Shown here: positions 3,244-14,502 of the stretch, piece by piece | Position numbering within the stretch: position 1 is the first letter of the stretch | Layout: every line of letters begins with the position of its first letter | Virus record (IMG/VR): IMGVR_UViG_2579778633_000006 | Origin: a virus | Taxonomy: Duplodnaviria; Heunggongvirae; Uroviricota; Caudoviricetes | DNA length: 16,004 bases | Direction: 5' to 3' (one strand) | Notes under the pieces: model-generated | What the model was told of the DNA's origin: nothing | Seen by the model: the letters and a program-made list of their open reading frames with translations, nothing else | The model's database searches: none | Translations under genes and position numbers: made by a program

Positions 3244-3606
3244 TTAACGACCTGCTGCGCGGAGTTTTCCGTCAGGTTCACCGGCAAGAGTCAGTAATTG
3301 TCCCTGGTCCTCCTGCAGAATAGTCAGGCGACCACCGCGATTGACATACATCGGCGTTTCGGTGGTGTCTTCTTCGGAAATTTTCCCGCGGTTAGTCGGG
3401 CGAACATATGAGAGTTTGTGTTTGATTTTCACACGGTTCTCATCAAATGGTTCGATTTCCAGGTTGAGTGAGACCTTACCTTTGGTTTTCGTGTTCATCA
3501 CACCGGAAGCGACTTCACTGAGAACTGCGCCGATTTTGGTTTCAAATACGCCGCCGTCCAGCTCCCCGATAAATGCCTGCACATCAGTACTGCGTTCGCT
3601 AGCCAT
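3244..3606 (-). CDS. Conserved prophage protein of unknown function (120 aa)
   Basis: Start placed at internal ATG 3604-3606 (MASERSTDVQ...) because GAGGAG (3614-3619, minus strand) sits 7 nt upstream; the longer 197-aa ORF extension has implausible Cys/His/Arg/Pro-rich composition and runs through strong hairpins. Confidence 0.5.
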   Translation of the reverse strand: MASERSTDVQAFIGELDGGVFETKIGAVLSEVASGVMNTKTKGKVSLNLEIEPFDENRVKIKHKLSYVRPTNRGKISEEDTTETPMYVNRGGRLTILQEDQGQLLTLAGEPDGKLRAAGR

Positions 3607-3654
3607 TTTGCTGCTCCTCATCATATCGACCCTGCAAGGTCGGTTGGTTTCTCC

Positions 3655-3789
3655 ACAAAACAGAGAAGAACACCTGCGGTGGCAGCCGCCCGGATGGATT
3701 GGGTTATGAGCCCGTCGTCCGGTGATGCTCTTCTCTGTTTTGTAAAAAGAGCGGTACCAGCCGGAAGCAAGTGTACAAACTGGTACCGC
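3655..3789 (-). other. Tandem stem-loops in the long leader between candidate OL operators and the first leftward gene (possible structured RNA or antitermination-type element)
   Basis: 16-nt inverted repeat with 1 mismatch (3655-3670 ACAAAACAGAGAAGAA vs 3728-3743 CTCTTCTCTGTTTTGT), followed by a perfect 10-bp inverted repeat GCGGTACCAG(3751-3760)/CTGGTACCGC(3780-3789). No convincing ORF in the 666-bp gap 3607-4272. Confidence 0.3.
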
Positions 3790-4189
3790 CAAAGCAGTGG
3801 CTGTTGTGGTGGGGTTGTCACTCAGGCGTATGGTCAACCTGACAATCCGGTGTCCTCAACGGGGAAAGAGTAACCCCGCCATACTTACCGCCGCGCCATT
3901 TCGCGGATTACCACAACGCTGAGAGCACTTAGCCAGTTACGGCACCACACTTTGTCGCGGTTCCATAAATGCCCTCATCGTTGCACCCTGGTCTCTTCCC
4001 AGGCGTCAAACCGGATCGCCACGCTGGTTAGGCGTCTTATCAGCATCATCATTGACTTGCACATTCCGGCTACCTGGTTTGTTTGCCCGAGCAAGGAGTG
4101 GATTGTCCCCTTTAACGTCCCCAGACCGCTAACGACGCATGTGCCATACGCCGTGTTACAACCAAATTTAGTTTAATCTTGCCTGTGTT

Positions 4190-4228
4190 ATGTATCCTAT
4201 AGATACATTATGTATCTTAAGGGTACAT
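4190..4228. promoter_or_regulatory. Two adjacent 7-5-7 palindromic operator-like sites downstream of the repressor gene (OL-like)
   Basis: ATGTATC-ctata-GATACAT (4190-4208) and ATGTATC-ttaag-GGTACAT (4210-4228); same half-site family as the palindromes in the cI/cro intergenic region. Confidence 0.45.
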
Positions 4229-4238
4229 TGTCAAGTAT

Positions 4239-4262
4239 AAAAAAACCTGCCGAAGCAGGTTA
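4239..4262 (-). terminator. Intrinsic terminator downstream of the repressor gene
   Basis: Stem ACCTGC(4245-4250)/GCAGGT(4255-4260) with CGAA loop; A7 run on plus strand (4239-4245) gives a U-run immediately 3' of the hairpin on the minus-strand transcript; 12 nt after the cI-like stop codon. Confidence 0.5.
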
Positions 4263-4272
4263 TAAATATTGA

Positions 4273-4947
4273 TTAGGCCTTTATTTTGTATCTTCTTGGT
4301 TTTCCTGAGAAAATCACTGTACCAATTATAGAGCAATTACCGTTGATCTTAATGTAAGGTTCAGGCCAGTTTGGGTTTAATGCTTTGAGGTAACGCTGTG
4401 TTCCATCTTCTATCAACCGCTTGAAGGTGGTTTCGCCTGTATCGTGCATCAATGCAATAACGTCGTCACCGTGGCAGGCAGGGACTTCAGGATCAACAAA
4501 AATCATGTCTCCCGGGCGGTACTCATCAATCATTGAATCACCAATCACCCGCAAGATATAAGTCATTTCGCCACAGGGTACAGGGCAGGGATAAGTTTCT
4601 GCTGTGCTCAAATCAACCTCAGAATAGCCAACTTCTTTCCATGCTCCGGCCTGTACCCATGATATGACAGGGACTAACGTTATTTGTTTGTTAGTGATTG
4701 AAACGTCAGGTTTTTTTGTGATGTTCGTTGTCTGGTGTTCTTGATCAAGCCATCCGACAGGCAGGTCGAAACATTTTTCGATGTGCCGTGCCATGCTGTC
4801 ACCGATATTTTTAGTTGCACCATCTCCCATAAACCTGCTGGTCTGGGTTGGCTCGCGATCAATCATGGTGGCAAAGGAAGAATTCCCGCCAACACCATCT
4901 CTCAGTTTTCTGGCGTTAGACCGCCGGATGTCATGGACTGTTTTCAT
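4273..4947 (-). CDS. CI-type phage repressor (N-terminal HTH, C-terminal LexA-like S24 peptidase domain)
   Basis: 224-aa ORF; C-terminal VIGDSM (Ser nucleophile context) and downstream FKRL (Lys) typical of autocleaving CI/LexA-family repressors; divergent from a Cro-like gene. Confidence 0.85.
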   Translation of the reverse strand: MKTVHDIRRSNARKLRDGVGGNSSFATMIDREPTQTSRFMGDGATKNIGDSMARHIEKCFDLPVGWLDQEHQTTNITKKPDVSITNKQITLVPVISWVQAGAWKEVGYSEVDLSTAETYPCPVPCGEMTYILRVIGDSMIDEYRPGDMIFVDPEVPACHGDDVIALMHDTGETTFKRLIEDGTQRYLKALNPNWPEPYIKINGNCSIIGTVIFSGKPRRYKIKA

Positions 4948-5269: not shown

Positions 5270-5833
5270 ATGAGGCTAACCGTGGGTAAGCATCACTGGA
5301 AAGTAGAAAAACAGCCTGAGTGGTACGTGAAAGCTGTCAGAAAAACTATCGCGGCGTTGCCGGGGGGTTACGCTGAAGCTGCTGAGTGGCTGGATGTAAC
5401 AGAGAACGCTTTATTCAACCGCCTTCGTGCAGATGGCGATCAGATTTTCCCGCTGGGATGGGCAATGATTTTACAGCGCGCGGCTGGCACTCACTACATT
5501 GCGGATGCTGTCGCACAGTCTGCTGGTGGGGTGTTTGTATCGCTTCCTGAAATTGAGGAAGTAGAGAACGCCGATATAAACCAGCGCCTGCTGGAAGTCA
5601 TCGAACAGATCGGGAGTTACTCAAAGCAGATTCGTTCGGCAATCGAAGATGGGGTAGTGGAGCCACACGAGCAGACAGCAATTAATGATGAGTTGTATCT
5701 GTCAATTTCGAAGCTCCAGGAGCATGCAGCACTGGTCTACAAAATCTTTTGCGCTCCAGAAAAGAGTGACGCCCGCGAGTGTGCAGCTCCGGGCGTCGTG
5801 GCGTTTTGTGTCTGTGGAGAAACTAACGCATGA
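5270..5833 (+). CDS. Hypothetical early-operon protein in the CII-like position (possible regulator); start may be GTG at 5282
   Basis: 187-aa ORF directly after cro-like gene; stop overlaps next start (ATGA at 5830-5833). Function not recognisable by eye. Confidence 0.45.
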   Translation: MRLTVGKHHWKVEKQPEWYVKAVRKTIAALPGGYAEAAEWLDVTENALFNRLRADGDQIFPLGWAMILQRAAGTHYIADAVAQSAGGVFVSLPEIEEVENADINQRLLEVIEQIGSYSKQIRSAIEDGVVEPHEQTAINDELYLSISKLQEHAALVYKIFCAPEKSDARECAAPGVVAFCVCGETNA

Positions 5834-6666
5834 ACAGTTTAACGGCAAATAACCGTTTGTCGCAACAGCTGGTGGTCAGTGTCGCTGAACACCTGTTGTT
5901 ACGGCATGAATGCAGATTACCAAATCACCTGGCTGTAAGTAACCACAGAGAACTTTACCTGACTGTGGGGGGCGAGTTGTGCAGGAACTTAACCGCTGGT
6001 TTCGTGACGGAAGAGGGCTTTATGTCCATGTTATTCGTTGGGAGCCAGAAACACAGCGCGTTATCTATCTTCGCAAAGACTACCCGCATGAGTGCTTTAG
6101 TCCTTTGTGGAAATTCAGGCGTGATTTTGTTGAGTGTGAAGGACCACCAGCACATTGATTCTGCCATTCCGGGACGTTACACTGTTCAGGCACCTTATAA
6201 AGCGGGTGCCGGGATTGGCGTCCTGGAAATGTTATCGGCGATATATGACGCGCCAGCGTCTTTTTTATCGTCTGCGTCTGTGCACACCCAAATTATGGTG
6301 GGCTGGACGGGGGCACCGAAAGGTGCGCCGGTTTCCGATAACGCCGGTTACGCCAACCCCGTTCAGTTCACCACCAGCGAAATTGGCGTTTCCGGTGGTG
6401 AAGGTAATTCACTGTTATCGGAGGCTGCCATCATGGCTACTGTCCCAGCCCTCACTCGTCTGAATGATGAAGACTTACATAAACTCAGTTATGTAACAAC
6501 TGCACTACGTGCTCTGCGCAAGGTAACTCTTTCGGATCCGCAGGCGCATCAAGTTCTGGTAGAAACCCTTCTTAACTTGCAGGCTGAACGTATTCGTCTG
6601 GCGGATAAGGCTAATTTTCATATTCACCGTCTCCTGAATATCAGCGGAGGGCATCGTCATGCTTAA
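5830..6666 (+). CDS. Hypothetical protein (278 aa)
   Basis: Translationally coupled at both ends (ATGA overlap at 5830; ATG 6659 overlaps stop 6664-6666, AGCGGAGGG RBS); E. coli-like codon usage. No recognisable motif. Confidence 0.45.
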   Translation: MNSLTANNRLSQQLVVSVAEHLLLRHECRLPNHLAVSNHRELYLTVGGELCRNLTAGFVTEEGFMSMLFVGSQKHSALSIFAKTTRMSALVLCGNSGVILLSVKDHQHIDSAIPGRYTVQAPYKAGAGIGVLEMLSAIYDAPASFLSSASVHTQIMVGWTGAPKGAPVSDNAGYANPVQFTTSEIGVSGGEGNSLLSEAAIMATVPALTRLNDEDLHKLSYVTTALRALRKVTLSDPQAHQVLVETLLNLQAERIRLADKANFHIHRLLNISGGHRHA

Positions 6667-10973: not shown

Positions 10974-12350
10974 CTATGATATTCCTGAAATATCCTCTTC
11001 AAGCTCTTTTACTGATTTCGCAATTTTAAATTTAAACTTCCTCTCTATTTCACTATTGCTAAGTTTTTTTTCCTTCTCTTTACCTATCCACATAGAAACA
11101 AGTTCTCGTTTCTGAGATATATGTAGATTGTCAAAGTTAGGTATGTATTTAAAAGTCTCCGCTCTACCTCTGCGGAGTTCATAGAAAGTTTTAATCAAAG
11201 ATTTTGGTTTTATTTCTGATGAAAGGCCGAATCGGCGGATAAGATTATTGATAGTATGATTAACAGAGCGAAGTTGAGCTGTTGAGGTTATTTGTGAGAA
11301 GTACGATACCCATCCCAATCGTTTACCTTCAAACACACATCCCGTAATTCTGAGATTTAGTTTCCACTGACAATATGCAACAGCTCGTTCTTTATCACGC
11401 TTACTTTTAGCTTGTAGTAGAGCGTGCCTATATGCAGTAAAAATTTTTGCTAAGGATGACTCAAATCTAAGAATGCTCTCATGTTTTATCAATAATTCTC
11501 GATTTTCTATGTGGTATCCCAAAAAGTTAAAACTTTCATCCAAACTGCCTACTTTGGATTTTGAGTTCTCTTCATTTAATGGATGTGGGTTTAAATTTAA
11601 TGATTGAAGCTTATCAATGATATGAGAAGCTATTTTTGTTGCTTGATATTTTGGTGTTAAAATAAGAATGTCATCAACGTATCGCATGTACCATATGTCA
11701 TGCATTTTATTGATTTCATCATCGAAATTAGATAGTGATATTTCAGCTAAAATGTTTGATATCGCTAATCCCTGAGGTACTCCTCTGGTATTATTAGGGA
11801 TACCTTTGCTTCCTGTGGTTCCACTTACAGTAGGCACGATTAATGATGATGTTATTAACTGTCTAATTTCTTTTTTTCTAATTTTATTTTTTATTGCATT
11901 AATTATCAATTTATGTTCAATTGAAGGATAGAAACTTTTAAGATCTATTTTTGCATATTCAGCATATAGACTGTTGTTTAATGCTTCTTTCAATGAGTCA
12001 ATTACTGTATGTGGTAGTTTTAATCTGGACTTAGGATATATTTCCGTAAGGCATTCACAGAGAGCTCTAAGAGTAATTCTGTCCCTAGCAGTTGGTATGG
12101 AAATCTGTCTGGGTGTAGAGTTAGCGCCTTTAGATATTAATTTTTCTTTATATGCTGTAAATTTGTAATTGCCAGAATTAACCTTTTCAAAAATGAAAGT
12201 GATCTCATTTTTTATTGTCAAATCAAGTTTTGATGGGCGAATCCGATCTATGCCAATCGCTCCTGATTCTTTGATTTTTTCAGAGTATACTTTTAGAAGA
12301 TTTTTTTTCGAGAATGACTTTTTAAAAATTCTGCTTGCAGTCATAGTCAA
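10974..12350 (-). CDS. Reverse transcriptase (bacterial defence-type RT; retron-like vs UG/Abi-like unresolved), 458 aa with C-terminal extension
   Basis: RT motifs in order: GIDRIRP; RQISIPTARDRITLRAL; IDLKSFYPSIEH; GVPQGLAISNILAEI; YMRYVDDILIL (YxDD catalytic box); FNFLGYHI. AT-rich gene; start overlaps upstream TM-protein gene by ~29 nt. Confidence 0.85.
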   Translation of the reverse strand: MTMTASRIFKKSFSKKNLLKVYSEKIKESGAIGIDRIRPSKLDLTIKNEITFIFEKVNSGNYKFTAYKEKLISKGANSTPRQISIPTARDRITLRALCECLTEIYPKSRLKLPHTVIDSLKEALNNSLYAEYAKIDLKSFYPSIEHKLIINAIKNKIRKKEIRQLITSSLIVPTVSGTTGSKGIPNNTRGVPQGLAISNILAEISLSNFDDEINKMHDIWYMRYVDDILILTPKYQATKIASHIIDKLQSLNLNPHPLNEENSKSKVGSLDESFNFLGYHIENRELLIKHESILRFESSLAKIFTAYRHALLQAKSKRDKERAVAYCQWKLNLRITGCVFEGKRLGWVSYFSQITSTAQLRSVNHTINNLIRRFGLSSEIKPKSLIKTFYELRRGRAETFKYIPNFDNLHISQKRELVSMWIGKEKEKKLSNSEIERKFKFKIAKSVKELEEDISGIS

Positions 12351-12873
12351 TCCAAAGATATATTAATGGGAGTATATAAAGTGCGGCAGTAATAAATATT
12401 CGAAGTAATATCCATAAAATAACAATTATTTTTTCTTTTTGTGTGGGGATCCTCGTCTTAAGTCCAACTTGAGTTACCCTTGAAATTTTATCATCTATGT
12501 CACGGTGATTCTCAACCTCATTGAGCAAATTAAAATATTTTTCTTTCTGTTCAAGAGATAACTGTTGACTGGTGGTAATGTCAAAATAGAGTCGCTGTAG
12601 TGCAATATAATTCCTTCTCATGGCTATTGCTCGACCACGAAAATCTAGGTTAGATACGATCAGAGAAATACCCAGTAGAGCCACTGAAAGTATCGCCGCA
12701 ACGACATCTGTATTATCTCCTAGAACCTTTGGAAATCGCAACGTTACAATTGAAAGTACCGCACTCAATATAGCATACCAAACGAGGATAAATTGAGAGT
12801 GTTTTTCAAGCCATTCTAGTCGATGGTGCGCTTGGATACGTGCTTTATATGTAAACCAAATATTGTCATGCAT
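12322..12873 (-). CDS. Multi-TM small protein, SLATT-like (putative membrane effector of the RT system)
   Basis: 183-aa ORF; AGGA RBS 5-8 nt upstream of ATG 12871-12873; hydrophobic helices FILVWYAILSAVLSIVTL, VVAAILSVALLGISLIVS and C-terminal IIVILWILLRIFITAALYILPLIYLW separated by a charged helical region; 3' end overlaps RT start. Confidence 0.6.
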   Translation of the reverse strand: MHDNIWFTYKARIQAHHRLEWLEKHSQFILVWYAILSAVLSIVTLRFPKVLGDNTDVVAAILSVALLGISLIVSNLDFRGRAIAMRRNYIALQRLYFDITTSQQLSLEQKEKYFNLLNEVENHRDIDDKISRVTQVGLKTRIPTQKEKIIVILWILLRIFITAALYILPLIYLWIDYDCKQNF

Positions 12874-13404: not shown

Positions 13405-14502
13405 TCAAGAGGTCTTATTTCTGCTCCTTTGGAGTTCTTCAAAACGATTATGTAAAGATTTCGGATACAGTTCGGTATATACCTGCCATAGCACGTTTAA
13501 TGAACGATGCCCTGTAACCTGAGCGACTTCCTCAATACTAAAACCAGCCTCAAATAAGCGACTTGCCCCTTCTCTACGCAAATCATGGTATCTCAGATCT
13601 TTAATACCTAATTTGCTTCTTACCCTCTGAAATCCTGCGGTAACAGAAGTGCTGTTATATGGAAAAATGAATTCTGATTTTTTGGGTTGTCGCTGGACGA
13701 TATCCCAGGCTTCCCCAAGCAAGGCAACTTTCATATGGTTGCCTTCCTTTTTACGTGGATCTTTCCTGTCTCTTACTAGTATAGATTTTTGTTCCTGGTC
13801 GAGATCTTCCCATCGTAACCGGCATACTTCTCCGATTCGCATACAGGACCACACAGAAAATTTGAGGATATCAACGAACGGAATTTTTGAGCATTTATGA
13901 GTAGATCGTTGTTGAAGGCCTTCAATGAGCATGTTCAGTTCATCAGATGCTGGTCTACGATTACGACGGTTTGATTTACCAATCAAACCGAGTTTAAGTA
14001 GATATGGACGAGCGCTTTTCGCCGGGTTTGATGTGTAATTGATTCCGTATACAGGTTTTGCCGCATCCAGAACACTGCCAAGATAACTAACATCGTGGCT
14101 GACTGTTGCTGGGCCTGCACCAGCGTTGTTTCTTAGCCTGCAATGTTCAATTACGTCATTTTCTGTCAGTTCAGATAGTTTGATCGCGGAGATGTCACTA
14201 TCCATAAGCAGTTCCAGCACATATCTTTTAGTACGGCCTGCTTTACCTCCGGCATTTGGGTCATTTAAATATTTGTGTAGTAAGTCACGGACTGTAAGTC
14301 CGTCAACAGCATTTGATGATGGAATGCCATATAGATCTAATTCCATCACTTTCTGTGCGCCCCATGTTTTGGCATGAGCATGTTTAGGGAATGTTTTGCT
14401 TTCCCTGTAAGTGATAACACCTTTTTCTTTGATAATCACATTACAGCGATAGCGTGGTGTGCCATCGGATTTTAGTCGTTTCTCTATGTTATAGTACGCC
14501 AT
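13405..14502 (-). CDS. int: Tyrosine-type site-specific integrase (phage integrase family), adjacent to and divergent from dusA
   Basis: 365-aa ORF; C-terminal catalytic signatures MRIGEVCRLRWEDLD (Arg), YHDLRREGASRL (HxxR), GHRSLNVLWQVYTEL (His/Trp and Tyr). Confidence 0.9.
   Translation of the reverse strand: MAYYNIEKRLKSDGTPRYRCNVIIKEKGVITYRESKTFPKHAHAKTWGAQKVMELDLYGIPSSNAVDGLTVRDLLHKYLNDPNAGGKAGRTKRYVLELLMDSDISAIKLSELTENDVIEHCRLRNNAGAGPATVSHDVSYLGSVLDAAKPVYGINYTSNPAKSARPYLLKLGLIGKSNRRNRRPASDELNMLIEGLQQRSTHKCSKIPFVDILKFSVWSCMRIGEVCRLRWEDLDQEQKSILVRDRKDPRKKEGNHMKVALLGEAWDIVQRQPKKSEFIFPYNSTSVTAGFQRVRSKLGIKDLRYHDLRREGASRLFEAGFSIEEVAQVTGHRSLNVLWQVYTELYPKSLHNRFEELQRSRNKTS

Follow-up and report, generated by a model that had tools for sequence, protein, structure and literature searches.

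In phage lambda, the nutL site lies between PL and the first leftward gene, and the leader of the N transcript, about 220 nt in length, contains an RNase III site. Other phage noncoding RNAs are released by tRNA-processing enzymes: the CI RNA of P4 and the C4 RNA of P1 and P7 are processed by RNase P, and the species 1 and 2 RNAs of T4 are encoded in a tRNA cluster. In HK022, putL is situated directly after PL; put elements are ~70 nt long, consist of two stem-loops at or near the 5′ end of the transcript, and occur in copies at PL and PR (PMC9378689). The prophage RNA DicF is made by RNase E cleavage and termination (53 nt) and by RNase III cleavage of a read-through RNA (72 nt) (PMC5069750). 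A further small RNA (sRNA), the 193-nt sRNA-17 of Escherichia coli K1 strain RS218, was defined by 5′/3′ rapid amplification of cDNA ends (RACE) and Northern blot on the negative strand of an mEp460-like prophage, and its deletion raised yfdP ∼95-fold (PMC7719688, Front Microbiol 2020). Here, we analyze the leader at positions 3607–4272 of a 16,004-nt stretch of phage DNA (IMG/VR record IMGVR_UViG_2579778633_000006; the window), for which a preliminary description had proposed that two tandem stem-loops are nut or put antitermination elements, with a degraded gene as the alternative. The leader is neither junk nor a lambda-style nut/put site, but a chain of conserved folded RNAs. With a probability of roughly 55%, we interpret this chain as a polycistronic array of noncoding RNAs that heads the early-left (PL) operon and is built like the dicF region of the dicB operon in the Qin prophage.

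The leader has the position and orientation first ascribed to it, running leftward between PL with its operators and the gene yfdP. PL is a sigma-70-like promoter on the minus strand (4207–4234; TTGACA at 4234–4229, a 16-nt spacer, and CATAAT at 4212–4207) that matches the consensus at 11 of 12 positions. Transcription probably starts near 4200, giving an early-left leader of ∼594 nt for which the minus strand is the RNA sense; the RNA features of the leader described below lie on this strand. Folding of the whole leader yields −234 kcal/mol and z = −7.2 for the minus strand and z = −3.5 for the plus strand, bearing out a structured leftward RNA. Likewise, no convincing open reading frame (ORF) or ribosome-binding site (RBS) is present: 3838–4200 contains no minus-strand ORF of 40 amino acids or more, and the short ORFs lack a Shine-Dalgarno sequence.

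The larger of the two stem-loops, reported as a 16-bp stem, is present with arms at 3655–3679 and 3719–3743 (25 nt, 84% complementary) and forms the closing helix of a 100-nt three-way-junction RNA (3650–3749). Helix P1 pairs 3744–3724 with 3674–3654; helix P2 spans 3722–3690 and contains GGG (3713–3711), the loop CUCAUAA (3710–3704), and CCC (3703–3701); and helix P3 pairs 3689–3686 with 3679–3676. The 3′ flank of the element is GUGGAGA. The 103-nt element 3648–3750 folds at −51.2 kcal/mol (z = −8.0). Copies were gathered by an exact-pattern scan for 18 nt of the interior, which returned at least 120 viral contigs with 84 distinct neighborhoods; this initial scan required the motif and thereby biases the alignment derived from it (A2), a MAFFT alignment of 33 distinct copies in which helices were assigned by RNAalifold (P1, 19 bp; P2, 10 bp with internal loops; and P3). 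Across these homologues the large stem is rich in compensatory changes. In A2, 98.0% of cells are paired, nine pairs are changed on both sides (54 cells), and the covariation score of 0.206 compares with 0.118 for shuffled alignments, none of 500 of which reached it, and with 0.03–0.06 for slid-partner controls. With the corresponding covariance model, R2, the minus strand reaches 113 bits and the plus strand 40 bits, and several G·U pairs are valid in the minus sense only. The length of P3 varies by non-multiples of three, so the element is not coding sequence, and the first downstream ORF differs among copies (YfdP-like, RdgC-like, and others), so it is not the leader of one particular gene.

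The junction RNA occurs in 2808 of 5426 complete E. coli genomes. In the K-12 prophage e14 (L243 2440–2600, plus strand), a copy scoring 77 bits lies within the ORF ymfH just upstream of xisE-intE, and a DicF-like terminator is present there too. Phage P1 (L003, AF234173) has two weaker junction-like cassettes, at 3607–3697 (minus strand, 36.6 bits) and 3867–3973 (minus strand, 27.4 bits); their loops are UUCAUAU and GUCAUAU. Both are oriented with the ban operon, where they come after tRNA-Asn and tRNA-Thr, and they overlap upl and plp, two ORFs annotated in the antisense direction. No match to the junction RNA was found in Rfam 15, and the searchable literature yielded nothing relevant on a ymfH sRNA.

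The second strongly conserved element is a 172-nt RNA with seven helices, including two pseudoknots (3987–4158; alignments A4 and A6), hereafter the core. H1 pairs 4153–4148 with 4138–4133, and pseudoknot 1 joins GCACAU (4144–4139) to AUGUGC (4064–4059). H2 pairs 4129–4121 with 4077–4069, H3 pairs 4056–4054 with 4020–4018, and H4 pairs 4035–4032 with 4024–4021 around the loop CUAACCA. Pseudoknot 2 joins AACC (4029–4026) to GGUU (4012–4009), and H5 pairs 4003–3999 with 3991–3987 around the loop GAAGAGA. In A4, a MAFFT alignment of 25 diverse copies that covers five helices and one pseudoknot, 97.3% of cells are paired, both partners have changed in 10 pairs, and the covariation score of 0.258 compares with 0.122 for shuffled alignments (0 of 500 as high). 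A6, which comprises 81 distinct model-aligned copies, has 15 pairs changed on both sides (202 cells) and a covariation of 0.246 against 0.113; A6 was fitted to the model and so leans toward it, whereas A4 does not. In A6, pseudoknot 2 is formed between CACC in the H4 loop and a downstream GGUG, with one pair that is C-G in 66 copies, A-U in seven, and mismatched in none. Long single-stranded stretches of the core are invariant, and the inserts of H2 and H3 differ by lengths other than multiples of three.

Several alternative pairings were discarded. RNAalifold proposed a nested helix for GCACAU/AUGUGC; this is incompatible with H1, which covaries, and the pairing was kept as a pseudoknot only. 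The long-range pairings of 9 and 12 bp in the minimum-energy fold (4152–4144/3833–3825 and 4021–4010/3851–3840) are not supported, because H1 has compensatory changes of its own and the modules occur apart. A resemblance of the core to signal recognition particle RNA or CsrB was seen by eye only and had no support from models.

The core model, R1, scores 139.9 bits in the window and 133.7 bits in phage P1. Window 3990–4167 is 78–88% identical to noncoding DNA of P1, P7, D6, and SJ46, where the CCA of tRNA-Ile(CAU), in the ban operon, runs directly into the core; similar cores in phiV10, TL-2011b, and SPN1S are followed by tRNA-Arg. The core is distributed over lambdoid, P1-like, and epsilon15-like phages. 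Its invariant 19-mer was found in at least 120 viral contigs (103 distinct versions) and in species representatives of Kosakonia, Citrobacter, Klebsiella, Enterobacter, Kluyvera, Phytobacter, Buttiauxella, Erwinia, and others, and 1831 of the 5426 complete E. coli genomes contain the core, with 554 places on plasmids. Two metagenome-assembled genomes labeled Oscillospiraceae/Bacillota (L226 and L238) also have the enterobacterial core RNA, at 161.8 bits in L238, and are probably mis-binned phage or contamination. No resemblance to the core exists in Rfam 15 at the gathering score or at E ≤ 10, and RefSeq and GenBank have no annotation there. An Rfam scan of the entire leader at the same thresholds was likewise empty, the only matches being C4 and isrK, 2 kb away. 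Judged by Rfam 15, by the annotated collections, and by such literature as could be searched, neither the junction RNA nor the core belongs to a described family, and comparative support for both is strong.

The compensatory covariation rules out the gene remnant that had been offered as the alternative to antitermination. The broader idea that the region is pseudogene debris or contains small real ORFs (ymfH-like, or like the ORFs of 39 and 64 amino acids in phage Ayreon) draws on existing annotation, namely ymfH in e14, three hypothetical proteins in Ayreon, and a 'hypothetical protein' in some RefSeq genomes. The annotators of these ORFs, however, differ in the strand and frame chosen, no RBS accompanies them, variation is concentrated at paired and compensating positions, and the lengths of P3 and of the H2/H3 inserts differ by non-multiples of three, which leaves such an explanation barely credible.

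The other stem-loop of the tandem, a 10-bp stem with fully complementary 10-nt arms at 3751–3760 and 3780–3789, is also present and constitutes an intrinsic terminator (3744–3790). In it, GGCGGUACCAG (3790–3780) pairs with CUGGUACCGCU (3760–3750) across a 19-nt loop, and U3750-C-UUUUU3744 follows. The GC-rich stem of 11–13 bp stands directly before the U-run UCUUUUU, and the segment 3745–3800 folds at −21.2 kcal/mol (z = −3.8). A compensatory variant of the stem, with A-U replaced by G-C, is found in L188 (GGUGCCAG/CUGGCACC), and in 26 of 28 divergent copies a hairpin of different sequence with a T-run precedes the junction element, many of them beginning UUUGGCGG.

This terminator coincides with the 3′ end of an RNA already mapped in a relative. 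sRNA-17 was placed on the window by means of its published primers (PMC7719688). The 3′-end primer, AAAAGAGCGGTACCAGCCGGAAGCAAGTGTAC, equals window 3745–3776 exactly, and the 3′ RACE end in RS218 falls at the terminator, the sequence of which is identical in the window. The RACE 5′ end (CGUUGUGG) corresponds to C3918, beside a 1×1 internal loop of the long stem described below, and the 5′ junction sequence CGTTGTGGT is at 3918–3910. The Northern probe and the full-length 5′ primer have no match in the window: the sRNA-17 body (∼100 nt) is replaced there by a Qin-type module, and the 3′ 65–70 nt are identical. The alignment rows labeled 'degenerative sRNA-17' in the same study include exactly the window version. 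From the RS218 primers and RACE ends, we predict a small RNA of ∼174 nt (3745–3918), a variant of sRNA-17 and positional counterpart of DicF. The 10-bp stem comes first in the transcript, is followed by UCUUUUU, and falls at a RACE end; it is thus a terminator and, in all likelihood, the 3′ end of the sRNA here, not an antiterminator. This portion of the leader is already known in variant form. Furthermore, the fragment used in the RS218 study as the sRNA-17 promoter is window 3918–4167, and its quantitative PCR amplicon is 3792–4167, so that one transcript spans core and sRNA. Such a spanning transcript suggests that the 5′ end of sRNA-17 is processed rather than primary.

Two modules separate the core from the terminator hairpin. 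The first, a long-stem cassette (3913–3984), pairs GCAACG-A-UGAGGGCAU (3984–3969) with GUGCUCUCA-G-CGUUGU (3928–3913) around a variable insert and folds at −34.1 kcal/mol (z = −3.5); its stem (3984–3913) recurs after the core in many phages with different inserts. The second (3803–3917), closed by GUUGUGGU (3917–3910) and ACCACAAC (3810–3803), holds the smaller GC clamps (3891–3906 and 3858–3880). Both clamps in the preliminary description, GGGG-N9-CCCC (3861–3877) and CCGCG-N6-CGCGG (3890–3905), exist and form hairpins in the minimum-energy fold. The module has little diversity, and its fold taken alone is not significant (z = +0.2 for the segment 3805–3920); its homologues are too invariant for a covariation test.

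It is this second module that links the locus to DicF. K-12 Qin contains 107 nt homologous to window 3811–3917, 25 nt upstream of DicF, and the window hairpin sits at DicF's place and shares 18 of 20 bases with it (UUUGGCGGUA.CAGUUU.UAC); in addition, window UUUGGCGGUACCAGUUUGUAC resembles DicF UUUGGCGGUAUCAGUUUUAC. The genomic position is that of DicF, in a prophage early operon, after a conserved upstream block, and ended by a terminator. The DicF covariance model (RF00039) has no match in 3500–4300 at E ≤ 10, and the same search scores Qin DicF at 76.7 bits; the window hairpin is therefore a positional and partial sequence relative of DicF, not a member of the family. In Qin itself (L002 2250–2420, minus strand), a cassette of ∼150 nt extends from the DicF terminator to dicB, closed by the 10-bp stem UUUUGUGAUG / CAUCACAAAA and starting with UGUGGUGAAUGCGGCUGAGCGC, like the 5′ end of sRNA-17; this cassette is likely the site of the RNase III cut that gives the 72-nt DicF. 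The other prophage sRNAs considered (Pas, HnrS, AgvB, and AsxR) are late-region RNAs and unrelated.

The leader is a mosaic, in which separate blocks have separate sets of relatives and modules recombine independently among phages. ACAAC or GUUGUGG is found at every block boundary (4163–4158, 3984–3979, 3918–3911, 3818–3805, 3743–3737, and 3661–3653) and also at cassette boundaries in unrelated phages, where it may be a processing signal, a recombination joint, or an alternative pairing. Long stems built as CAAC..GAGAGCAU / GUGCUCUC..GUUGUGG reappear around a variety of inserts. Some module is present in 4740 of the 5426 E. coli genomes, and modules also occur in P1, SfV, ST64B, mEp460, Stx2c phages, and K-12 e14 and Qin, where existing annotation is empty or consists of questionable reading frames, such as ymfH of e14 and upl and plp of P1. 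The block mosaic, the boundary motifs, and the tRNA genes adjacent to modules elsewhere together argue for an array of discrete RNAs and not for one regulatory switch. Protein genes can also sit within the array, since in the corresponding leader of SfV (L242 1486–2330), ∼1.07 kb in length, an additional ORF (orf33) and a terminator annotated by the SfV authors are inserted downstream of PL and ahead of the terminator/junction module. In P1-like contigs (L196 4514–4613, minus strand; L138 3818–3917, plus strand), some ACAAC..GUUGUG cassettes enclose sequence antisense to a tRNA T-arm-like element, which hints that the cassettes derive from tRNA genes.

The exchange of modules between unrelated phages exactly at ACAAC/GUUGUGG, and the location of the P1 core just upstream of the helicase gene ban, might be taken to mean that the conserved blocks act as DNA, either as boundaries for mosaic recombination or as folded single-stranded signals such as priming sites. 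We consider this very unlikely, as the changes observed preserve pairing, the G·U pairs are valid on one strand only, the blocks are co-oriented with adjacent tRNA genes and with the mapped sRNA, and the spanning transcript was amplified from RS218.

For the array that we favor, the most likely function is that of a DicF-type leader which is processed into stable RNAs and in which the terminator gates the early-left genes. Inactivation of the LexA-like repressor would allow transcription from about 4200, with a minor additional contribution from read-through of the repressor-gene terminator. The transcript would present, in order, the 172-nt core, the long-stem cassette, and the second cassette leading into the DicF-position sRNA that ends at the terminator (3790–3744). 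Most PL transcripts would stop at 3744–3750 and be trimmed, presumably by RNase III or RNase E, to a stable RNA of ∼170–190 nt of the sRNA-17 family, the hairpin and U-tail of which would be typical of Hfq-type regulators and may render it Hfq dependent. Polymerases that read through would make the junction RNA and then yfdP and the other early-left genes. Helix P1 is near-continuous over 19–25 bp, in line with the ∼20 bp of an RNase III substrate, and its 20–25 bp would begin inside the U-run of the terminator, at the last U. By analogy with its cuts 3′ of DicF and in the N leader of lambda, RNase III would be expected to cleave this long helix, thereby detaching the small RNAs from the yfdP message and deciding what becomes of the 5′ end of that message. 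In relatives with tRNA genes, ordinary tRNA processing would release the same modules.

A number of points weigh against this interpretation. It assigns no role to the core or the junction RNA, which are the most conserved of the array. The RNA ends are those of the RS218 homologue, and the window variant is read from its sequence alone. The authors of the RS218 study regard sRNA-17 as a primary transcript and take the upstream core to be its promoter region, under ArcA control, and not a portion of a precursor (PMC7719688), and the derepression of yfdP in their mutant could stem from the inserted cassette. The 19-nt loop is longer than those of textbook intrinsic terminators, and a consensus scan limited to loops of ≤8 nt missed the terminator. 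The RNase III cut in helix P1 is proposed by analogy. Finally, if the terminator is efficient, some route to the downstream xis/int-type genes would be required, which leaves room for antitermination.

A structured, functional leftward leader is what the preliminary description had envisaged, and that part of its interpretation stands; the assignment of the two stem-loops to nut or put does not, the 10-bp stem being the terminator and the leader having neither boxB, nor an N gene, nor similarity to HK022 put. The sole match to boxA (CGCUCUUA-like), CGCUCUUUUUAC, is the terminator 3′ arm with its U-run and is not conserved, homologues having GUCCUUUUU, GCCCUUUUU, or GCACUUUUUU instead. No boxB hairpin (a 5-bp stem with a GNRA-like pentaloop) was found in the fold or sequence of the leader, and no N gene was found, the first gene, yfdP, having no Pfam match and no N-terminal arginine-rich motif. 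The tandem stem-loops are ∼410–550 nt downstream of the inferred start. Searches of the HK022 PL/PR region with the window models, a one-directional test, gave only noise with R1 (best E = 5) and nothing with R2. The searchable literature on put-like elements contained nothing relevant. Two candidate resemblances were rejected: an rrn-type boxA/boxC reading of GCUCUU...UGUGUGG in the 3′ arm of helix P1, which is base-paired and covaries to GCCCUU, away from boxA, and put homology based on a 9-mer, CAUGCGUCG, shared by eye with the HK022 PL region, for which the covariance model gave no match.

The main rival to the processed array is nonetheless an antiterminator of a different kind, in which the core, alone or with the next stems, would act in cis and in a put-like manner, though unrelated to put, binding the polymerase by which it is being transcribed and carrying it past the terminator at 3750 and later early-left terminators. 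The distance from the PL start to the core is at most ∼45 nt in lambdoid-type loci, and several contigs have the core right at promoter-like sequence. An intrinsic terminator precedes all early-left genes, with another annotated further down in Ayreon, and no N-like gene is available ahead of yfdP. Invariant single strands and two pseudoknots are what docking onto a conserved host machine would lead one to expect, and no phage protein partner is common to the contexts of the core. Other findings speak against this role. The 16-kb window has a single core copy, with none on the PR side, and the covariance model reveals no similarity to HK022 putL or putR. In the phiV10-type unit (core, stem, tRNA-Arg, and DicF-like terminator), the terminator is expected to work; in P1 and D6 the core is in mid-operon after a tRNA, and in some contigs it follows other cassettes, not a promoter; and in ST64B and e14 the terminator and the junction RNA occur without the core. 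We do not favor this explanation and judge it improbable.

The junction RNA invites a separate alternative, as the tip of P2, GGG-CUCAUAA-CCC (3713–3701), resembles an anticodon arm. Fourteen nucleotides, CGGGCUCAUAACCC, are identical to a tRNA-Met gene present in ∼4 copies per E. coli genome, which is that of the initiator tRNA, whose hallmark is its three G-C pairs. The arm combines a 7-nt loop, a U33-like pyrimidine, CAU, a purine at position 37, and three closing G-C pairs. GGG-NUCAUAN-CCC is kept in model-found copies from contigs collected via another motif, and the loops of model-found copies read UUCAUAU and GUCAUAU (P1-like), CCCAUAA, and GUCAUAA. The e14 copy has the loop UUAAUAA, in which CAU is lost and the fold kept. 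In Klebsiella phages (L004 1978–2048, minus strand, and L022, L024, L048, L052, L058, L059, L062, L071, L089, and L110), a 70–71-nt version is situated 8 nt downstream of a tRNA gene and combines an acceptor-like stem of 6 bp with an anticodon-like arm containing CAU, an encoded ACCA or GCCA tail, and compensatory changes in P3; it looks like a tRNA-like RNA that lacks a D-arm and is missed by tRNA finders. ARAGORN detected no tRNA or tmRNA in the leader at default, relaxed, or mitochondrial settings.

On this basis, the junction might be a stable, trans-acting mimic of the initiator anticodon arm, which would lure away tRNA-fMet-cleaving toxins or defense nucleases (VapC/MvpT type) or bind the 30S P site or methionyl-tRNA synthetase, with the long helix and terminator serving only to produce it. 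We regard this as a tentative and rather unlikely proposal. It would account for the identity to a tRNA-Met gene carried about four times per genome, for the retention of GGG-NUCAUAN-CCC in motif-independent copies, including P1-like ones, and for the tRNA-sized Klebsiella version directly after a tRNA with its acceptor-like stem and NCCA; the varying downstream gene, too, speaks against a leader dedicated to a particular gene. It must contend, however, with the failure of ARAGORN to recognize a tRNA even when relaxed, the lambdoid version without CCA, the e14 copy that folds without CAU, and the motif requirement of the first search, which biases A2; the binding partner is hypothetical throughout, and the searchable literature on tRNA-like decoys returned nothing relevant.

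The same observations can be extended, as a speculation that we likewise hold to be unlikely, to the view that temperate enterobacterial phages (lambdoid, P1-like, epsilon15-like, and Klebsiella phages) harbor, within early operons and tRNA clusters, two undescribed families of stable RNA: an initiator anticodon-arm mimic that is a toxin or nuclease decoy or docks at the P site, and a double-pseudoknot RNA that engages a conserved host machine such as RNA polymerase, the ribosome, or a processing enzyme. The double-pseudoknot RNA might even be a self-processing ribozyme that cuts at the ACAAC/GUUGUGG junctions. Were this so, the two hairpins first noticed would be the visible edge of an RNA-based toolkit for counter-defense or host takeover. 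More immediately, the locus offers two strongly covarying candidate families for Rfam and a terminator-based control point for the early-left genes of lambdoid phages without N, and the conserved copy of an anticodon arm points to contact at the RNA level with translation initiation or with tRNA-targeting toxins.

The window as a whole is the immunity region of an E. coli lambdoid prophage. Its identity is 99% with phage Ayreon and 98% with phage cdtI and Stx2c-converting phages, and E. coli AR434 has it at 100%. Upstream of the leader is a gene for a LexA-type S24-peptidase repressor, identified by its Peptidase_S24 domain (4273–4947, minus strand), with the intrinsic terminator of this cI-like gene directly upstream of PL (4244–4261, minus strand), recognized by sequence and also annotated in Ayreon. 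A promoter is annotated in Ayreon at the place equivalent to PL. Two tandem 19-bp palindromic operators of the ATGTATC-N5-GATACAT type, found by a repeat search, overlap the promoter (4190–4228); in K-12 e14, a PL-like promoter and operator sequence as in the window lie downstream of ymfK. At the other end of the leader, a small hairpin (3642–3637 / 3632–3627) and the Shine-Dalgarno sequence GAGGAG (3619–3614) precede the yfdP start (3604–3642 overall). The first leftward gene, yfdP (3244–3606, minus strand; start codon 3606–3604), is annotated in RefSeq E. coli genomes and is followed by a DUF2303 gene.

Two further observations concern other parts of the window. A 458-amino-acid ORF (10974–12350, minus strand) contains a reverse-transcriptase domain (Pfam RVT_1, E = 8e-21) and has neighbors at 12322–12873 and 13405–14502, both on the minus strand; it may be a reverse-transcriptase-based defense cassette carried by the prophage. 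On the plus strand, an ORF at 5830–6666 matches Pfam Phage_ASH over amino acids 117–210 (∼nt 6178–6460) and covers the Rfam isrK and C4 matches (6190–6266 and 6291–6378, plus strand), which means either RNAs nested within a gene or a protein family built from translations of RNA genes.

The leader can be compared with several described systems. It shares with the lambda N leader its position and a long helix just upstream of the first-gene RBS, a possible RNase III substrate; unlike the nutL region, it has no boxB, conserved boxA, or N gene, and is ∼600 rather than ∼220 nt long. HK022 put is likewise a structured leader RNA in an N-less lambdoid early operon, with a complex fold and conserved non-helical nucleotides, and by analogy any action of the window core would need no dedicated phage protein. 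HK022 put suppresses termination in cis by contacting the zinc-binding domain of the RNA polymerase beta′ subunit. The window has no sequence or model similarity to put, however, and holds the core in a single copy, and the two stem-loops are a terminator and a junction helix. The CI RNA of P4, the C4 RNA of P1 and P7, and species 1 and 2 of T4 are, as here, noncoding RNAs in early operons or tRNA clusters. The 70-nt Klebsiella version has an acceptor-like stem and NCCA, and the window contains a C4-family RNA on its PR side. The C4/CI clan differs in that it has no sequence or model relation to the RNAs of the leader and no anticodon-arm mimicry.

Further correspondences are with sRNA-17 and the dicB operon. 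sRNA-17 has the same locus and strand, the same 3′ 65–70 nt with the terminator, the same CGUUGUGG 5′ junction, and the same flanking core and yfdP; its body is a different module in the window, and its description (PMC7719688) does not include the core, the junction RNA, or the relation to DicF. In Qin, the protein genes ydfABC occupy the place of the core RNA, and the post-terminator cassette is in the window the tRNA-like junction; the 5′ seed region also differs from that of DicF, so common targets are not expected. With these exceptions, the two operons share a repressor-controlled early transcript, a homologous upstream block, an sRNA with hairpin and U-run, and a long-stem cassette before the next gene. 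Recognition of the array thereby joins DicF and sRNA-17 as one family of processed leader RNAs.

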